A stretch of DNA of 64,000 nucleotides from Candidatus Omnitrophota bacterium (GCA_903901225.1 CAIUQE010000037.1:106580-170579); one strand, 5' to 3'. Positions 632-30,819 are shown, counted from the first letter of the stretch. Numbers and translations: made by a program. Notes: a model not told the origin generated them from the sequence alone.

Positions 632-3418
632 TTATCGTTTCAGGAAATGGCTCAGGTATTGGCCGGTGTAAGACGCGGGCTGAAGGGAAAGTTGTTCCGG
701 TGTCCCGGCAAACATCAACCGCCCTCCCGCGCCGCCTCCTTCAGGGCCGAGGTCGATGACATGATCCGCGGATTTGACCACCTCAAGGTTGTGCTCGATA
801 ACAAGGACCGTATTGCCCTTGTCAACAAGCCGCTGGAGGACTGATAATAACTTTTCGACATCCGCGAAATGCAAGCCCGTCGTCGGCTCATCAAGGATGT
901 AAAAAGTGCGGCCTGTCGCCGGCTTGCAAAGCTCCGCCGCCAGCTTGACCCTCTGGGCCTCCCCACCGGAAAGAGTGGTCGCGGACTGGCCCAGTTTGAT
1001 GTAACCAAGTCCAACGTCATTCAATACCTCAAAAACACGCCGGGCACGGGGAATATTTCCAAAAAACTCAAGGGCATCGACAATGGACATGTCAAGGACA
1101 TCGCTGATATTACGGCCTTTATATTCAACCTGGAGGGTCTGCTCATTAAAACGACGTCCATGGCAGATCTCGCACTCCACATGGACATCCGGCAAAAAAT
1201 GCATTTCGATCTCCTTGATCCCGTCACCCTCGCACGCTTCACAGCGCCCCCCCTTAACATTAAAACTGAACCGCCCCGGCCCGTAACCGCGCAGCTTTGC
1301 CTCAGGCAACCTGGAAAAAAGCGTCCGTATGTCCGAAAAAACCCCCGTGTACGTGACCGGATTCGACCTGGGGGTCCGGCCGATAGGCGACTGGTCAACG
1401 ACAACCACCTTGTCAATGTGTTCGACCCCTTCGATCTTCTTGAAGGCCCCCGGCTTCTCGCGCGCGCCGTAGAGTTTTTGCGCCAGGACTTTGTGGAGCA
1501 CATCGTTGACCAGCGTTGATTTCCCGGATCCTGAGACCCCTGTGACACACGTGAACGTCCCGATCGGGAAATCCACGTCGATACCCTTCAAATTATGCTC
1601 GTTCACACCCTTCAAACTTATGAATTTTCCCTTAAAAGCCTTGCGGCGCTCCAGAGGCAAAGGGATCTTCAGGTCTCCGCTCAAATACCTGCCTGTCAAT
1701 GAGCCCTTGACCGACATGATCCCGGCCACAGGCCCCGCGTACATCACCTCACCGCCGAATTTCCCCGCGCCCGGGCCAAGATCGATCAGCCAGTCGGCAT
1801 TGCGGATCGTATCCTCATCATGCTCAACGACGATCAGCGTATTACCAAGGTCTCTCAAAGCATGCAAGCTCGCCAGAAGCCGTTCGTTATCTTTTTGATG
1901 CAGGCCAATGGATGGTTCATCAAGTACATACACCACGCCCACAAGGCCGGAACCCACCTGCGTGGCCAGGCGAATGCGCTCCGCTTCACCGCCGGAAAGG
2001 GTCGCGCTTCGGCGGTCAAGGGTCAAATAGTCCAGCCCGACATTAACGCAAAAATCCAGGCGCCGCGCGATCTCTTTCAGGACAGGTTCCGCAATGGCAA
2101 CCGCATCCCCCTGCAGTTGGAGCGTGGAAAAGAATTCTTTCGCCCCCTTGATGGAAAGTTTGACCACATCGGCAATATTTTTCCCGCCCACGAGGACCAT
2201 GAGCGAAGACTTTTTAAGCCGGTCTCCCCCGCAAAAAGGACATGGGGCTTCCGACATGAACCTGGATATCTCTTCTTTCAACCAGTCGCTGTCCGTCTCA
2301 CGAAAAAGCCTTTCCAGGTACCCTGTCACACCCTCAAACCGGCGGCCCCAGATAATGTCCTCCCCCCCGTACAAAATACGCCGTTTAAAATCTTTGGGGA
2401 GTTTGCTGTAGGGCAGGGTCACATCAATATCGTAAAGCCCTGCAAGTTCACGCATCACCGCGCGATAATACATCATGTACCCTCGCTGACCCTTGCGCCA
2501 GGGGACAATGGCGGCAACCCAGGGTTTTGAAGGATCCGCGACTAGAACGTCGATATCGATCTCCATCTTCGTCCCAATGCCGTTGCACTGCGGGCAGGCG
2601 CCATAAGGCGAATTGAACGAAAAAGTCCTCGGTTCAAGTTCCGGAAGGTCGATCCCCTCCTCCGGCACGGAATAACTTTCGCTCAAGACAATATCTTCAT
2701 CCCCGTCAGAAAAAGCGATCACAACGGATCCCTTGCCCACCTTGAGGGCTGTTTCTACTGAATCCGTCAAACGAAGCTTAATATCGGATTTGACGCTCAA
2801 ACGGTCAACCAAGATCTCTACAGAATGGACCTTGTAGCGGTCAAGCTTGATCTTTTCACTGGCATCGTATATTTTGCCATCAACGCGAAGGCGGGCAAAC
2901 CCGGCCTTGGCCACATCCTGGCCAATATGAGGGTAGGTCCCTTTCTTCCCTTTGACAAAAGGCGCGAGGACAAGCACTTTTGTGCCCACCGGCAAACGCA
3001 ATATCCGCTCGACCATTTCCTGGGCAGACTGCTTCTCCAGCTTCTGGCCTTTATAATAGGGAACCCCCACCCGGGCGAACAAAAGGCGCAGATAGTCATA
3101 GATCTCCGTCTGGGTCGCGACGGTGGATCGCGGGTTACGGCTGATGGTCTTCTGTTCGATGGAAATGGTGGGGCTCAAACCGTCGATGGATTCAACATCG
3201 GGCTTCTGCACTTGCCCCAGGAACTGGCGGGCGTAGGCCGAGAGGCTTTCAACGTAACGCCGCTGGCCTTCCGCGTAGATCGTATCGAACGCGAGCGATG
3301 ATTTTCCGGAACCGCTCAAGCCCGTCACAACGATGAAAGCATCCCGCGGCAGATCCAGCGAAATGTTCTTGAGATTATGCTCCCGCGCGTTCTTGATGAC
3401 AATATGGTTCAGCGACAT
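632..3418 (-). CDS. uvrA: Excinuclease ABC subunit A (UvrA)
   Basis: Supplied ORF 632..3508; two ABC ATPase modules with Walker [15 protein letters not shown] and [13 protein letters not shown], zinc-finger CxxC motifs, ~930 aa. Likely true start MSLNHIVIK (cat at 3416-3418); upstream 30 codons look like a spurious extension. Confidence 0.95.
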
Positions 3419-5139: not shown

Positions 5140-5984
5140 TACGTGGTGACTATAATGTTATCTATCAGCCTGGTGGTGCCGAACCTGGCCGCAACCGCTA
5201 TCAACACCCGCCCTTCTATCCGACGGGCAACACGAAGATCATGAAGCGTTACGCACGAAACATATTCAATGCTAGCACCGGCACCGACGGAAATCAACTT
5301 TTTTATTGCGGAATTTATTCTTGCCGTCCGACGCTCACCGGCGATGACCATTTTCCTGGCATGGCAAAGGGCCCTGTAGATCGACGGAGCCGCGGCCCTA
5401 TCACCGGCGGAAAGGTATGTGTTGCGGGAGCTCATGGCCAGGCCGTCTTTTTCGCGGACCGTCGGGCAGACTTTCAGCCCCGTCGCGAGGTCAAGGTCTT
5501 TCATCATGCGCCGGATGATCTCGACCTGCTGGGCATCTTTCTGCCCCAGGTACATCACATCCGGCTGGACGATATTCAATAATTTGGCCACCACGGTGGC
5601 AACCCCGCTGAAATGGCCGGGCCGCGACGCCCCGCAAAGGCCATCCCCGATCTTCTTCACGTCGATATGCGTCAGAAACCCCGCGGGGTACATTTCATCC
5701 ACGGACGGGACGAAAAATAGCTCGACCCCGGCCGCGGATGCCATCTTCCTGTCGCGGTCAATGTCACGCGGATACCTTCCAAGATCTTCTGCCGGACCGA
5801 ATTGGATAGGATTCACGAACAAACTGACCACAGTGGCATGATGGTCCTTCACGGAGCGCTCCATCAATGACACATGGCCCGCGTGAAAATACCCCATCGT
5901 CGGGACAAAACCGATCGTCCTGCCGCGCGCGCGCAACCGGACCAATTCATGCCTGAGAGCCTTGATCGTTCTCACCAGTTTCAT
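5139..5984 (-). CDS. panC: Pantoate--beta-alanine ligase (pantothenate synthetase)
   Basis: 281 aa; PTMGYFHAGHVSL HIGH-type motif, conserved MSSRNTYL and LNIVQPDVMYLGQKDAQQ segments. Confidence 0.93.
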   Translation of the reverse strand: MKLVRTIKALRHELVRLRARGRTIGFVPTMGYFHAGHVSLMERSVKDHHATVVSLFVNPIQFGPAEDLGRYPRDIDRDRKMASAAGVELFFVPSVDEMYPAGFLTHIDVKKIGDGLCGASRPGHFSGVATVVAKLLNIVQPDVMYLGQKDAQQVEIIRRMMKDLDLATGLKVCPTVREKDGLAMSSRNTYLSAGDRAAAPSIYRALCHARKMVIAGERRTARINSAIKKLISVGAGASIEYVSCVTLHDLRVARRIEGRVLIAVAARFGTTRLIDNIIVTT

Positions 5985-26916: not shown

Positions 26917-26990
26917 ACATATCCTTTGGAAATAATTTTCATCGATATTAGCACATGCGCCAGGTTTTCAATAGAAAAATCCCTTCCCCC

Positions 26991-27018
26991 TTGTTCTCGG
27001 ATGATCCCGTGTTATAAT
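26991..27018 (+). promoter_or_regulatory. Putative promoter of the histidinol-phosphatase gene (TTGTTC-16-TATAAT), possibly leaderless transcript
   Basis: -10 TATAAT at 27013-27018 lies only 6 nt before the ATG at 27025. Confidence 0.3.
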
Positions 27019-27024
27019 CGCAGC

Positions 27025-27828
27025 ATGTTACCGATATCTGATTACCATATGCACACACCCCTGTGCGGTCACGCGACAGGCGAACCCCAGGCCTACGCGA
27101 GGCGCGCGATCGAGGTCGGATTGAAGAAGATCGGGTTTTCCGACCACGCCCCCCTTGTGTCACACAATGACCGTTCCATCACGATGGACCATTCGCAACT
27201 GCCCATTTACCACCACATGATCGAAAGCGTGCGCTCCGAATTTGAGGACGATCTGGAGGTCATTGTCGGGATCGAGGCGGATTTCATCCCCGGCTATGAG
27301 GAACTCACGCGCTCCATGCTCAGCGCCTATCCCTACGACTATGTGATCGGCTCCGTCCATTTCATCGAAAAATGGGGTTTTGACGACCCGATCCAGATGA
27401 AGGAATGGAACGCCCGGGATGTGAACGACGTTTACCGCGAGTACCACCGCCTGCTGCGCAAGAGTGCTTTGTCACGGTTGTTCGACGTGCTCGGGCATGT
27501 GGACCTTGTGAAAAAATTTGATTTCCACCCCACGGTGGACATCACGGCGGAGATCGAGGAGAACGCCCGCGTGTTCAAGAAGACCGGCGTCATTGTGGAA
27601 GTGAACAGCTCGGGCCTGCGCAAGCCCGCGAAAGAAATTTATCCTGCCCTGCACGACCTGAAGATCTACTGCGCCAAAGGGGTCCCGATCACGTTCGGCT
27701 CCGACGCCCATGACCCGCACGACGTCGGGCGAGATTTCGACAAGGCGCGCGACCTGGCCCTGGCCGCGGGGTACACCGAGTACGTCCTGCTCAAAGGCCG
27801 CAAGGTTTCACATACCGTTTTACTGTGA
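27025..27828 (+). CDS. hisJ: Histidinol-phosphatase, PHP family (HisJ/HisK type)
   Basis: Supplied ORF 26926..27828; PHP metal-binding motifs DYHMHT, GFSDHAP, EVNSSG; likely start MLPISDYHMHT at 27025. Confidence 0.8.
   Translation: MLPISDYHMHTPLCGHATGEPQAYARRAIEVGLKKIGFSDHAPLVSHNDRSITMDHSQLPIYHHMIESVRSEFEDDLEVIVGIEADFIPGYEELTRSMLSAYPYDYVIGSVHFIEKWGFDDPIQMKEWNARDVNDVYREYHRLLRKSALSRLFDVLGHVDLVKKFDFHPTVDITAEIEENARVFKKTGVIVEVNSSGLRKPAKEIYPALHDLKIYCAKGVPITFGSDAHDPHDVGRDFDKARDLALAAGYTEYVLLKGRKVSHTVLL
27590..27828 (+). repeat. Direct repeat copy A (3' end of hisJ), ~95% identical to 29096..29334
   Basis: By my manual alignment the two copies differ at about 12 positions over ~235 nt; 11 changes are synonymous and one is T->K. 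Confidence 0.85.
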
Positions 27829-27919
27829 TTTATCCCAGTCACTTTCCCTGATCTTTCCTGACCTTTGTGTGTACCCTCTAGTAAACACATGTCTATTTAA
27901 GTAAACGACAACGTCATCA

Positions 27920-28327
27920 CTACTCCGGCAGTTTGGCCATTCCCCACTGATAAAATCGCTCAACTTGTTTTAAAATATCAAGCGCATCCGCCTGACGGAA
28001 ATCCCGTTCTTCATACTCAATGGCTGTTTTCTTCGCAAGGATCCTGGAATAATTCTTCGCCTGAGCCTCTACGCCATCGATGTTCACCCTGTAAAGAAGC
28101 TCCGCGGCCGTGGCATGATCCTCCCCAGCGGAACGTTGACCCAGATGACACACAGTGATCGCATCGTTAAGCGCGATCGCGCAATGAACCGCGTTGACAC
28201 CTAAAGCTGCCCAATATTCTTTTTGTTGCGCAACTTGCATCATTTCATACAACTGACTGGCTCGATCCAAAAAGATCGTATAACTGCTTTTTGCAACGAT
28301 CTTTACTTTCATCGACCTGGCATTCAT
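27920..28327 (-). CDS. hepT: HEPN-domain toxin (HepT-like, Rx4-6H RNase motif)
   Basis: 135 aa; HEPN motif RSAGEDH (R-x5-H) in CHLGQRSAGEDHATAAELL; 4-nt overlap with upstream MNT gene. Confidence 0.78.
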   Translation of the reverse strand: MNARSMKVKIVAKSSYTIFLDRASQLYEMMQVAQQKEYWAALGVNAVHCAIALNDAITVCHLGQRSAGEDHATAAELLYRVNIDGVEAQAKNYSRILAKKTAIEYEERDFRQADALDILKQVERFYQWGMAKLPE

Positions 28328-28950
28328 AGAAATGCCTCCAATTTTTTACCCCAAATTATTTTATTCGAATCCAAAGCCGCTTTAATAAACGACAGCCCCT
28401 CGGAGGATTTTTTACGAAATTCAGCAACTGAATAAATGTGTGCGTCTATACTTAACCCGACTTCCTGCAAGACAGAAACGTTGATATCCAGAAATAAGTC
28501 TTCCACAAGAGATCTTACTTTCTCACTGTTGATAAGCACAAGCAGATCAACATCACTCGTCGGACGCTCCTTTTTTTTATGAACGCTTCCAAACAAAGCT
28601 ACTGACACAATATCTTCTTTGATCCCAGAACCTTCTATTTTTTTATGAAATTCCGTCCAAAGATCCGACGGATAATCTCCTTCCGTCTTGAACATGGGTT
28701 TTAACACTTTTGCCACGACCCAATTCTTCGGGTTTAAGCCGTACGCGTGCACTGTACCAAAACCTTTCCTCTCCAGCACTCCTTCTTCATAAAGGTCCCG
28801 AAGAGCCACCCTGACAGTCGTTGTCGAAGCCTGCAGTAATTGCGCGACCTGTCTCCCGCTGGTCTCGCCCCCAACAGAACAAAACAATCGCAAGATCTTT
28901 ACTTTAGTCTCACTATTCAAAATTTTATTCAATGGTTTATTCAACCGCAT
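28324..28950 (-). CDS. mntA: Minimal nucleotidyltransferase antitoxin (MntA-like) fused to an N-terminal winged-HTH
   Basis: 208 aa; NTase signature ALFGSVHKKKERPTSDVDLLVL (GS...D.D); N-terminal wHTH KILRLFCSVGGETSGRQVAQLLQASTTTVRVALRDLYEEGVLER. Confidence 0.78.
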   Translation of the reverse strand: MRLNKPLNKILNSETKVKILRLFCSVGGETSGRQVAQLLQASTTTVRVALRDLYEEGVLERKGFGTVHAYGLNPKNWVVAKVLKPMFKTEGDYPSDLWTEFHKKIEGSGIKEDIVSVALFGSVHKKKERPTSDVDLLVLINSEKVRSLVEDLFLDINVSVLQEVGLSIDAHIYSVAEFRKKSSEGLSFIKAALDSNKIIWGKKLEAFL

Positions 28951-28954
28951 ATTA

Positions 28955-29065
28955 ACTGCTTCCCATTTCTATGTTCCGCTTTCAGTTCATGTGTGCCATT
29001 TTCAGTCTACATGAACTGTTTTCGGTTCATAGGATATAATAAAAAATTACACTTGTCAAGCCGGT
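28955..29065 (-). promoter_or_regulatory. Promoter/operator of the mntA-hepT operon
   Basis: Minus-strand TTGACA (complement of 29055-29060) then a TATAT -10 about 15-17 nt downstream. Between promoter and ATG lie three imperfect direct repeats (ttccgctttcagttcatg / ccattttcagtctacatg / ctgttttcggttcatag). GTCACTG/GTGACTG repeats sit upstream. Confidence 0.45.
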
Positions 29066-29095
29066 CACTGTGACTGTCACTGCGCCTCCACGGCC

Positions 29096-29334
29096 TCATT
29101 GTGGAAGTGAACAGCTCGGGACTGCGCAAGCCCGCGAAAGAAATTTATCCTGCTCTGCACGACCTGAAGATCTACTGCGCCAAAGGGGTCCCGATCACGT
29201 TCGGCTCCGACGCCCATGACCCGCACGACGTCGGGCGCGATTTCGACAAGGCGCGCGACCTGGCCCTGGCCGCGGGTTATAAAGAATACGTCCTGCTCAA
29301 GGGGCGCAAGGTCTCACATACTGTTTTGCTGTAA
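29096..29334 (+). repeat. Direct repeat copy B (displaced 3' end of hisJ)
   Basis: See copy A; copy B begins right after the HEPN/MNT promoter region and ends with its own stop codon (TAA). Confidence 0.85.
29101..29334 (+). pseudogene. Orphan C-terminal fragment of histidinol-phosphatase (77 codons, no N-terminal PHP motifs)
   Basis: Translation EVNSSGLRKPAKEIYPALHDLKIYCAKGVPITFGSDAHDPHDVGRDFDKARDLALAAGYKEYVLLKGRKVSHTVLL is identical to the hisJ C-terminus except T->K. Confidence 0.7.
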
Positions 29335-29339
29335 TTCCA

Positions 29340-29735
29340 TCAAAAATCCTGCAGAGCAACCACGATATTAGGAAAAGCCTTCAGAAGATATTTATCAGCT
29401 GTCGCAAGCTTGACCCCCAACATCTGCGCCAGGGCAACATATTCCGCGTCATACGCCGAGCACCCCCCATGGCAAGCGGTCTCCATGACCTGGGTGGATG
29501 GGACACTTTTTGTCCGCGGACTAAAAACAAGCTCCACCCTGACCGCAAGCTCGATGGCATCCTGACGAGCTAATTGTTTCGCGCGCACAAAACCCAGCAG
29601 GATATTCCTGAATTCCGACACCATGATCGGCGGGACGATCCAGACAGTATCCTTCCGGATCACCGCTTGCGCCAACGGCTGAAAAGGCCCCGGCAAATAA
29701 TAATACGCGACAAGATTCGCATCCGCGACGATCAT
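29340..29735 (-). CDS. vapC: PIN-domain ribonuclease toxin VapC
   Basis: 131 aa; MIVADANLV N-terminus with acidic PIN residues (D5, E42, D... pattern); 4-nt overlap with upstream antitoxin. Confidence 0.78.
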   Translation of the reverse strand: MIVADANLVAYYYLPGPFQPLAQAVIRKDTVWIVPPIMVSEFRNILLGFVRAKQLARQDAIELAVRVELVFSPRTKSVPSTQVMETACHGGCSAYDAEYVALAQMLGVKLATADKYLLKAFPNIVVALQDF

Positions 29736-29971
29736 GCCTGGCCTTCTTTCTTGAAACGATCGATATCCTCGGGCAATGCCTCGCCCTTGAACGCATGGCG
29801 CATCAACGCCGCATCAAACGCCATCTGCTGGGCATCCAGCGGCACGAACCCTGTTGCCGTTTCAAGGCTGGAAATGATCTCATTGTTCAAACTGCGATGT
29901 CCCATAACGGCCCTGCGCTTTAAAACCTCATGCAACCGGCGCGGTATGTTCTTGACAGTAATATTGGCCAT
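29732..29971 (-). CDS. vapB: VapB-type antitoxin (ribbon-helix-helix, FitA/StbC-like)
   Basis: MANITVKNIPRRLHEVLKRRA matches the RHH antitoxin N-terminus; supplied ORF extends 12 codons further upstream. Confidence 0.7.
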   Translation of the reverse strand: MANITVKNIPRRLHEVLKRRAVMGHRSLNNEIISSLETATGFVPLDAQQMAFDAALMRHAFKGEALPEDIDRFKKEGQA

Positions 29972-30006
29972 GGCAAGCCCTCCTTGATAGAACCATAACA
30001 CAACCA

Positions 30007-30477
30007 TTATGGTTCGTCAATGATCGCTGAATACATAAACCCGGATTTTTCATTAGAAAAATCTGCCCCGCAGGGGTCGCGTGGCAAATCCAACACCCGC
30101 TCCATCTCTCGTCGATCCTTCTTGGTCGGTCGCCCTTCGCCTTTCGCGCGACGCGGCGCCCATCCGCCCTTGATGAGGGCAAGCTTATTTCTTTCTTCTG
30201 GTGGGGTTATATCCTCACAGCACTCTTTTACAAGCTGAGCACCAACCCGTTTATCGATGCATTTCAAAACCCGATACTGCCAGCTGACACCTTCTTTTCG
30301 AACAACGATCACCTGCCCTATCTTTACATCCCGCGACGGCTTAACCGCCTGCCCGTCGATACTTACCTTATGCCTTTTACACAGATCAGTTGCTATCAAC
30401 CGCGTCTTGCAAATGCGCACCGACCACAACCATTTGTCGATCCGCACGCTGATTGAAACAGGATCAGGACCCGTCAC
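30007..30477 (-). CDS. S4-domain RNA-binding protein (Hsp15/YbcJ-like)
   Basis: VRIDKWLWSVRICKTRLIATDLCKRHKVSIDGQAVKPSRDVKIGQVIVV is a classic S4 fold signature; basic C-terminal tail. Confidence 0.65.
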   Translation of the reverse strand: MTGPDPVSISVRIDKWLWSVRICKTRLIATDLCKRHKVSIDGQAVKPSRDVKIGQVIVVRKEGVSWQYRVLKCIDKRVGAQLVKECCEDITPPEERNKLALIKGGWAPRRAKGEGRPTKKDRREMERVLDLPRDPCGADFSNEKSGFMYSAIIDEP

Positions 30478-30758
30478 GCATCCCCAAACTTATAATGCTT
30501 ACGCACGGGCTTCTTGACATGCCAGGTACAGCTTAAGCCCTGCGGGAATGTCACAAGATCCCCTTTTCCAAATGAAACAGATTCAAAAGGTGTCTTGAGC
30601 GTCACTTCACCCTCCAGGAACAAACAAACCTCTTTTTCATCATATTGCCAATCAAACGATGAGACCTCTTTGGTCCATATCGGCCAGGATCGCACGCCCA
30701 GATCGACAAGCCGTTGTTCGTACGGCTTTTCGACTATTACCTTAAATGTATGTGGCAT
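30474..30758 (-). CDS. Small cupin-domain protein
   Basis: 94 aa; beta-rich, two cupin-like motifs (G.LVTFPQG...W.V). Confidence 0.45.
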   Translation of the reverse strand: MPHTFKVIVEKPYEQRLVDLGVRSWPIWTKEVSSFDWQYDEKEVCLFLEGEVTLKTPFESVSFGKGDLVTFPQGLSCTWHVKKPVRKHYKFGDA

Positions 30759-30819
30759 TGGCTCTCCTCCTGATGGCTATGATCTCCAACTCCCACACTT
30801 CACGGGGAGGGGAAAATAA

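Follow-up and report, generated by a model that had tools for sequence, protein, structure and literature searches.

How does the gene of a biosynthetic enzyme come to be followed by a second, diverged copy of its own 3' end, with a toxin-antitoxin (TA) operon lodged between the two? The question is raised by hisJ, which encodes a PHP-family histidinol-phosphatase, in a stretch of 64,000 nucleotides (nt) from a Candidatus Omnitrophota bacterium (GCA_903901225.1 CAIUQE010000037.1:106580-170579), the whole of which is referred to below as the window. The answer that we regard as the best overall explanation, and hold at about even confidence, is that the intervening cassette is an autoregulated TA operon of the kind catalogued in PADLOC as PDC-M05, in which a minimal nucleotidyltransferase (MNT) is paired with a HEPN protein, and that it was placed here by recombination between related lineages rather than by an integrase of its own. 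The identity of hisJ is indicated by profile matches of its product to the NCBIfam models PRK07328 (1.7e-96) and TIGR01856 (8e-54) and to the Pfam PHP domain (5e-28), and by 92% amino acid and 87% nucleotide identity to the orthologue at L034, the closest relative found.

The repeat is the feature from which the history of the locus can be read. A repeat search recovered two direct copies of 246 nt with 93.9% identity, starting 1506 nt apart, which confirms the diverged repeat of about 240 bp that the first-pass annotation of this DNA had reported at the hisJ end; there is no third copy within the 64-kb window. Ungapped base-by-base comparison places the left limit of strict homology at 27590/29096 and the right limit 2 nt beyond the stop codon, with a possible leftward extension by the 4 nt CGGC (27585-27588) past a single G/C mismatch at 27589. 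The two copies differ in frame at 14 nt, comprising 11 single synonymous changes, one codon with a double change (ACC to AAA, Thr to Lys) and the stop codon (TGA to TAA); an earlier hand count of about 12 differences, 11 of them synonymous and one a Thr-to-Lys change, was close in character and slightly low in number. Nei-Gojobori estimates for copy 1 against copy 2 are Sd 11.5, Nd 1.5, dS 0.23 and dN 0.009, a non-synonymous to synonymous rate ratio (dN/dS) of 0.04. Thirteen random substitutions would be expected to include about nine non-synonymous ones, and two or fewer would arise with a probability of about 5e-5; the open reading frame (ORF) of the orphan copy is intact, and its peptide has been called on 30 contigs. 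The copies differ by 6%, against differences of 0.01-0.09% among the cassette-bearing contigs themselves. Because dN/dS is so low and the divergence lies far above the diversity of the population, we conclude that the two ends diverged inside working hisJ genes of different lineages, and the proposal that both descend from functional alleles rather than from a fresh target-site duplication is thereby upheld.

These differences form a mosaic: three fall within the opening 181 nt and 11 within the final 58 nt (Fisher p 1.5e-5), so that the repeat body is 98.3% identical between the copies and the tail only 81%. The body, which holds identical runs of 83 nt and 38 nt, is also the part of hisJ whose nucleotide sequence is best conserved between lineages. 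Measured against L034, either copy stands at a distance of 16-17 differences in the 181-nt segment and 11-13 in the 58-nt segment; by these counts the two tails are about as distant from each other as tails from different species, with the bodies nearly identical. The peptide KGRKVSHTVLL is common to both tails, whereas L034 has KNRKVTHNVLLS and L015 has KNRKISRSVLLS at this point, and because the tail peptide is thus shared to the exclusion of L034 and L015, the two hisJ lineages are taken to be sisters. When L034 and L015 were used to polarise the 14 differences, the result was mixed, neither copy being consistently ancestral. The mosaic had escaped the first-pass annotation, as had the larger, 3-kb islet to which the cassette belongs.

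A purely local origin can be weighed on this evidence alone. The repeat might be a duplication made in situ, by a long target-site duplication or replication slippage at the time of insertion and subsequent divergence, or it might be an artefact of assembly; the near-identity of the body (three differences in 181 nt) and the existence of short contigs that break near the repeat speak for such accounts. However, the orphan shows no neutral decay, with at most two non-synonymous changes where about nine would be expected and an uninterrupted ORF, and its tail is 19% diverged, against a population diversity of 0.01-0.09%. As for assembly, a concern that the first-pass annotation had itself raised, the locus recurs at 99.91-100% identity in contigs of up to 201 kb from other samples, in both scaffold-type and k141 (MEGAHIT-type) assemblies, and because of this agreement across samples and two types of assembler an artefact is very unlikely. 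In-situ duplication and artefact were accordingly both rejected on dN/dS, tail divergence and cross-sample identity, and we consider that there is hardly any chance of either.

What, then, lies between the two ends? The upstream gene of the cassette encodes a protein with an ArsR/SmtB-type winged helix-turn-helix (wHTH; approximately residues 9-75), a long linker helix and an MNT domain in which the nucleotidyltransferase motif, G[SG]-x9-13-D-x-[DE], takes the form GSVHKKKERPTSDVD (G121-S122...D133-x-D135). The catalytic domain is recognised above the Pfam cut-offs (Polbeta, 1.1e-8; NTP_transf_2, 8e-8), several sub-threshold HTH matches fall on residues 9-76, and the protein matches PADLOC PDC-M05A across its full length (2.4e-19). 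Its AlphaFold2 (AF2) model (pLDDT 87.2) presents a winged helix, a long helix and a nucleotidyltransferase fold in that order, the N-terminal part resembling CadC, HlyU, CzrA and SqrR (target TM 0.64-0.78), and G121, S122, D133 and D135 do not vary across 24 homologues. The Pfam domains, the PDC-M05A match and the winged-helix fold together bear out the earlier designation of this protein as wHTH-MNT. The view that the fusion is unusual was not sustained: an exhaustive HMMER search at E<=1e-10 retrieved 271 representative clusters, nearly all collinear and 200-220 amino acids in length, and with the full-length PDC-M05A match this marks a common architecture. The MNT gene lies 5' of the HEPN gene, and the pairing is kept in every homologous locus examined.

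The partner protein is more divergent. It matches no curated model (Pfam to E<=10, NCBIfam, PADLOC to E<=1), including PF05168, PF01934 and PADLOC M05B, and PDB sequence searches with the single sequence and with a profile gave nothing meaningful. It is 37% identical (E 1e-25) to the product of L011:2610-3020, which in turn matches the PF05168 HEPN model end to end (1.1e-8), and 17 homologues all retain R65, D70 and H71; Tyr105 is invariant too. The top PDB folds for its AF2 model (pLDDT 87.8) are 2hsb, 1ufb, 1wol, sacsin and HepT, with a TM of 0.70-0.75 to 2hsb and weak Foldseek E-values of at least 0.017. Transitive homology, predicted fold and the R-x5-H motif thus point to a HEPN protein, and the L011 paralogue, the fold and the invariant R65 and H71 bear out the first-pass assignment. 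Judged from sequence and structural models, the cassette is best classified as an MNT/HEPN TA operon of the PDC-M05 kind, in which the HEPN protein would be a putative RNase toxin and the translationally coupled upstream wHTH-MNT its predicted antidote.

PDC-M05 belongs with the classical MNT-HEPN TA dyads of the HEPN-T/PF05168 type. It has been described as a TA-like combination of nucleotidyltransferase and HEPN proteins that is enriched in archaea and for which no antiviral role has so far been demonstrated (PMC12988326). The cassette agrees with it in having MNT upstream of HEPN, in the overlapping stop and start codons and in the intact nucleotidyltransferase G-S...D-x-D and HEPN R-x5-H motifs; the paralogous pair at L011 further matches PF05168. 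It departs from it in a HEPN protein too divergent for a direct match in Pfam, NCBIfam or PADLOC, and in its host, an Omnitrophota bacterium, where PDC-M05 has been reported as 59% archaeal.

The type VII HepT/MntA systems (SO_3166/SO_3165 of Shewanella and the HEPN/MNT pair of Aphanizomenon), with which the first-pass annotation had aligned the cassette, likewise combine a HEPN RNase-type toxin with a minimal nucleotidyltransferase, and the fold matches of the window's HEPN protein include the HepT structures 5yep and 6m6u. In contrast to HepT, this protein is of the PF05168 type, without a DUF86 match, and lacks a Tyr at the second position after the His of Rx4-6H (H71-A-T), the residue in the Rx4HxY motif that Yao et al. 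and Songailiene et al. reportedly identified in 2020 as the AMPylated one in HepT. Its partner scores 26.1 bits against the NF047752 MntA equivalog, whose cut-off is 60, and carries an N-terminal wHTH that MntA does not have. Because DUF86 and the Tyr are absent and the MntA score is below cut-off, strict membership in the HepT/MntA group fails. Neutralisation by AMPylation is possible, though not implied.

Regulation of the operon can be approached by comparison among cassettes. The promoter that had been ascribed to it is present as TTGACA-17-TATCCT at 29059-29031, and the operator-like units follow directly: O1 (29030-29011) reads ATGAACCGAAAACAGTTCAT and is a perfect 6-N8-6 palindrome (ATGAAC-N8-GTTCAT), O2 (29010-28991) is degenerate and O3 (28990-28971) reads ATGAACTGAAAGCGGAACAT. 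Five other cassettes (L065, L013, L004, L011a and L011b) show TTGACA-17-TATxCT followed by two 6-N8-6 palindromes, with half-sites that vary from cassette to cassette (ATGAAC/GTTCAT, TGACC/GGTCA, TGTAAC/GTTACA). Autorepression by the ArsR-type domain is supported because these half-sites co-vary across cassettes: wHTH-MNT likely represses its own operon through this domain at the predicted palindromic operators downstream of the -10 element. The conserved layout of promoter and palindromes in the five other cassettes also lends support to the first-pass prediction of autoregulation at a repeat-rich operator.

With the passenger identified, the site that received it can be reconstructed from relatives. 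L034 and about 20 other Omnitrophota loci share the gene order folE(-), hisJ(+), ispG/gcpE(-), with the convergent hisJ and ispG stops approximately 10-65 nt apart; the check proposed in the first-pass annotation, to look for an unoccupied site with only one hisJ end, was thus answered in all of these loci. Because hisJ abuts ispG in them, the DNA between the two genes in the window is recognised as an accessory islet (Table 1), of which the MNT/HEPN cassette is one part and a second TA pair (PIN/ribbon-helix-helix), standing directly after the orphan hisJ end, another. The spacer is a variable site, as more distant relatives hold other single genes there, namely an SNase-like gene (recognised by sequence motifs only) and a response regulator. 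In none of the relatives' hisJ loci in Omnitrophota is there another copy of the gene end, and the spacers that were inspected contained no integrase. The cassette is foreign in composition, with a G+C content of 38-47% against about 55% in the flanks.

Table 1. Features of the hisJ-ispG region, in window coordinates
Feature	Position	Strand	Remarks
hisJ, PHP-family histidinol-phosphatase	27025-27828	+	alternative starts at 27001 and 27049
Repeat copy 1	27585-27830	+	last ~80 hisJ codons, stop codon and 2 further nt
Segments of copy 1	27590-27770 (body); 27771-27828 (tail)		body near-identical to copy 2; tail 19% different, Thr allele
Accessory islet between convergent hisJ and ispG	27829-30819	.	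3 kb; two TA pairs, orphan hisJ end, S4/Hsp15-like gene, cupin gene
Spacer from hisJ stop to HEPN stop	27829-27919	.	91 nt
HEPN-type putative RNase toxin	27920-28327	-	135 amino acids; R65-x5-H71
wHTH-MNT	28324-28950	-	208 amino acids; stop overlaps HEPN start (ATGA, 4 nt)
Three tandem 20-nt operator-like units	29030-28971	-	directly after the promoter
Sigma-70-like cassette promoter	29059-29031	-	TTGACA-17-TATCCT; 10/12 consensus positions
Repeat copy 2	29091-29336	+	orphan hisJ 3' end, Lys allele
Orphan ORF	29101-29334	+	77 codons, intact
PIN/VapC-like toxin	29340-29735	-	131 amino acids; Pfam PF01850, 2.6e-5
FitA-like ribbon-helix-helix antitoxin	29732-29971, or to 30007 with upstream start	-	PF22513, 7.4e-9
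S4/Hsp15-like gene	30007-30477		
Cupin gene	30474-30758		

Homologues of the cassette elsewhere indicate what kind of unit was inserted. Homologous pairs with 65-72% nucleotide identity occur 3' of dnaJ and a Zn-ribbon gene, 5' of the ATP synthase operon, beside a plasmid-type replication gene and in TA islands, and because these other copies sit in unrelated contexts, the linkage to hisJ is a property of this single insertion. The nucleotide homology of the other copies to the window ends at the operator region on one side and at the HEPN stop on the other; the spacer between the hisJ and HEPN stops has no homology to them (blastn alignments to L062, L065 and L013 end at 27927), and its predicted RNA fold is not significant (z -1.1). 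Long flanking repeats are lacking around the homologues in six other contexts, the exception being a 25-nt exact repeat at L011. On these comparisons the cassette is a two-gene module without fixed ends.

Two of these loci deserve mention in their own right. L011:1944-5656 carries two tandem paralogous wHTH-MNT/HEPN pairs, one of whose HEPN proteins matches PF05168; the 25-nt exact direct repeat (3120-3144 and 5622-5646) brackets the second pair together with an AAA_14/DUF4143 gene, its second copy falling inside the first codons of a major facilitator superfamily gene. The bracket may be the footprint of a second insertion. At L069:1435-5297 a homologue of the cassette (MNT 55% identical in amino acids) lies between a plasmid-type replication initiator (PF10134 RPA) and a GIY-YIG gene, a setting that suggests a plasmid or other mobile context. 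Scans of viral contigs found no hisJ fragment and no MNT relative, and a tblastn search of plasmids returned one weak Sinorhizobium match, giving no link to the plasmids of cultured bacteria.

The nearest homologue of all, L062:1-3991 (HEPN 93% identical in amino acids, 88% in nucleotides), adjoins a tyrosine recombinase of 146 amino acids, possibly truncated, and a Tn3-family transposase. It comes from a different Omnitrophota metagenome-assembled genome, whose own hisJ locus (L041) is empty, and is likely to be a Tn3 passenger; TA pairs are common beside the resolution modules of Tn3 elements (PMC7157771). Unlike such passengers, the copy in the window has no terminal inverted repeats, no 5-bp target duplication, no transposase or resolvase and no res-like palindrome. 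Chromosomal islets that consist of TA genes only, lie between core genes and are free of mobile genetic elements have also been described (PMC13617665).

Does the arrangement nonetheless record an integrase? The first-pass annotation had favoured the site-specific integration of an element that brought along a gene end of its own. This survives as one of two comparable readings, with nothing specific to support it: no integrase, att-like core or hisJ-targeting relative has come to light. On the model of e14 and phage 21 at Escherichia coli icd, with its icdC pseudogene, the hisJ end in the element's attP would have become copy 1 and the resident end would have been displaced as copy 2. Later deletion would have removed the integrase together with everything else in the element except the addictive TA pair; alternatively, the insert would be a non-autonomous, cis-mobilisable remnant. 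The likeness to icd is close, extending to an intact chimeric gene, an insert, an orphan C-terminal fragment and mostly synonymous differences, and recombination between the copies would there, as here, regenerate a chimeric gene (PMC13626634). An element-borne end kept under selection by other hosts would be expected to show just such a tail, highly diverged in nucleotides and almost unaltered in peptide; the cassette's nearest homologue does adjoin a tyrosine recombinase; and TA modules typically outlast the decay of the elements that brought them (PMC13617665).

Several observations run counter to this. Whereas e14, a prophage of 15 kb, encodes an integrase and excises on SOS induction, the 1.27-kb interval in the window is a TA operon only, and neither between the repeats nor elsewhere in the window was a gene for an integrase, an excisionase or another element function found. 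No recombinase or transposase gene was called within 10 kb on either side, the only genes between the repeats being the two of the TA pair, and tblastn of one tyrosine recombinase and one Tn3 transposase against the window gave nothing significant, a comparison that did not extend to a profile scan of all window ORFs; the statement that no integrase remains thus agrees with both the gene calls and the tblastn result. At the cassette borders no inverted repeats, dif- or res-like sites, att-like core, Tn3 ends or short target duplication were found. The relatives' single hisJ ends and the absence of integrases from the spacers inspected give no evidence of recurrent att use of hisJ in the Omnitrophota loci compared, viral contigs lack hisJ fragments, and the other copies of the family are neither linked to hisJ nor flanked by gene ends. 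The recombinase at L062 belongs to a Tn3-type transposon, which makes no 240-bp duplications, and the orphan does not lie beside ispG, where a first integration at the ancestral hisJ/ispG junction would have put it. Such an origin is possible on this evidence, and we rate it as the main rival, though somewhat unlikely. A bolder extension would make the conserved hisJ 3' end the att site of miniature, integrase-less TA elements of Omnitrophota, which would carry their own gene ends and be mobilised in trans; if true, the 58-nt tail, synonymously diverged and encoding the same peptide, would be the element's own long-kept copy of the gene end. This we think decidedly improbable.

Recombination between related lineages is favoured because no recombinase is present, hisJ does not recur as an att site, hisJ ends borne by phages or other elements are lacking and the cassette has no fixed ends. 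As we envisage it, one crossover would have found its anchor in the well-conserved stretch towards the 3' end of hisJ, and the other end of the incoming DNA would have been joined without homology at 29090/29091, possibly on the 4-nt CGGC microhomology. With this join lying upstream of the hisJ end, the incoming DNA would have come to stand beside the resident end instead of replacing it, and the final ~240 nt would have been left in two allelic versions. Homology between the copies does stop abruptly at 29090/29091, with the possible CGGC microhomology and one mismatch, and the left edge of copy 2 is probably a novel, illegitimate junction. The mosaic could reflect a short, more foreign hisJ tail that travelled with one flanking block, or a later gene conversion that homogenised the body. 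Two directions of transfer fit equally well: the cassette with a Thr-type tail may have entered ahead of hisJ(Lys)-PIN as the resident order, or the orphan with the block of PIN, ribbon-helix-helix, S4 and cupin genes may have entered behind a resident hisJ(Thr)-cassette. The earlier view of the orphan as the displaced resident end is hence not established, its arrival with the PIN/ribbon-helix-helix block being an equally good fit.

There are precedents for the individual steps. Displacement of 3' ends in Rhs and type VI secretion system (T6SS) loci has been attributed to homology-facilitated illegitimate recombination (PMC5361080), for TA islets free of mobile elements, a spread through recombination in the core genes beside them has been put forward (PMC13617665), and transformation-driven duplications via inter-chromatid pairing make junctions 'behind' the anchor feasible (PMC3784515). 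The Rhs, contact-dependent inhibition (CDI) and T6SS effector loci offer the closest parallel, with a module anchored by homology in a conserved upstream part of a gene, the old 3' end orphaned downstream and no mobile-element genes (PMC5361080). They differ in that they are polymorphic-toxin genes, the displaced end being a different toxin tip with its immunity gene, whereas the window has the gene of a biosynthetic enzyme, near-identical end peptides and an unrelated TA passenger.

Against this explanation it must be said that it concerns a single event and that no donor arrangement, with hisJ followed by the cassette and no duplication, was found. Microhomology of at most 4 nt is weak evidence for an illegitimate junction; the mosaic can be accommodated only by assuming something further, be it an earlier, nested event or gene conversion at a later stage; and a join upstream of the crossover requires that the crossover lay to the left of 27590 or that an inter-chromatid or circular intermediate was involved. 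An integrase could have been deleted since, and the toxicity, neutralisation and repression that are built into the explanation are themselves predictions from sequence.

There is a further account, in which a circularised fragment from a sister strain, carrying a hisJ end and the cassette, would have integrated by a Campbell-type single crossover within the 240 nt of homology, heteroduplex repair or gene conversion then homogenising the first 180 nt, so that both copies would be chimeras. On geometric grounds a single crossover of a circle directly duplicates exactly the common segment, the identical runs of 83 nt and 38 nt would be suitable substrates for it, and the clustering of the differences could mark a conversion tract around the crossover. 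However, a circularisation joint, itself unexplained, is needed at the same place (29090/29091), and a plain reciprocal crossover would leave the differences between the copies unreduced, so that the mosaic again calls for an extra step. The present data cannot tell this account from the favoured recombination between lineages; we regard it as improbable, less so than the notion of hisJ as a standing att site.

One further sequence bears on the state of the locus before, or after, the event. P0019 is a full-length HisJ in the database that is identical to that of the window except for a Lys-type end. On its contig (ENA ERZ1426541, 1510 bp) the next gene, on the opposite strand, starts 6 nt after the hisJ stop, a spacing equal to that which separates the PIN gene from the end of the orphan (29334 to 29340), whereas the cassette-bearing contigs have a gap of 92 nt to the HEPN gene. 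This contig may represent the uninterrupted ancestral arrangement, a revertant formed by recombination between the repeats, like the e14 icd/icdC fusion (PMC13626634), or an assembly chimera. As a possible empty site within the species it speaks for the favoured recombination scenario; that it could be one of the latter two counts as a further point against that scenario. An exact look-up of the partial PIN and FolE peptides expected on the P0019 contig gave no match for either, and since the FolE fragment has to be present on this contig, its miss makes the look-up uninformative.

Around the second TA pair, a promoter-like site lies at 30020-29992 on the minus strand. A perfect 20-nt palindrome, GATTTTTCATTAGAAAAATC, occurs at 30044-30063 near this promoter of the ribbon-helix-helix and PIN genes, with a degenerate copy at 26962-26983 in the divergent spacer between folE and hisJ.

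Taken by itself, the recombination scar at hisJ is clear but ordinary, both the PDC-M05-type TA system and the displacement of a 3' end being of known kinds. Current understanding is not overturned, and the value of the locus lies in providing a worked example and a source of predicted operator/repressor pairs. It is, at the same time, an unusually legible record of how a TA islet takes shape on a chromosome in an uncultured phylum, since about 20 relatives show the empty site, the nearest relative of the passenger is found on what is likely a Tn3-type transposon and both allelic ends have been kept. To the 3'-end displacement known at Rhs/T6SS loci and at e14/icd it adds an example from a housekeeping gene, and the co-varying palindromic operators furnish comparative evidence for autoregulation of wHTH-MNT/HEPN (PDC-M05) systems via their fused ArsR-type domain.

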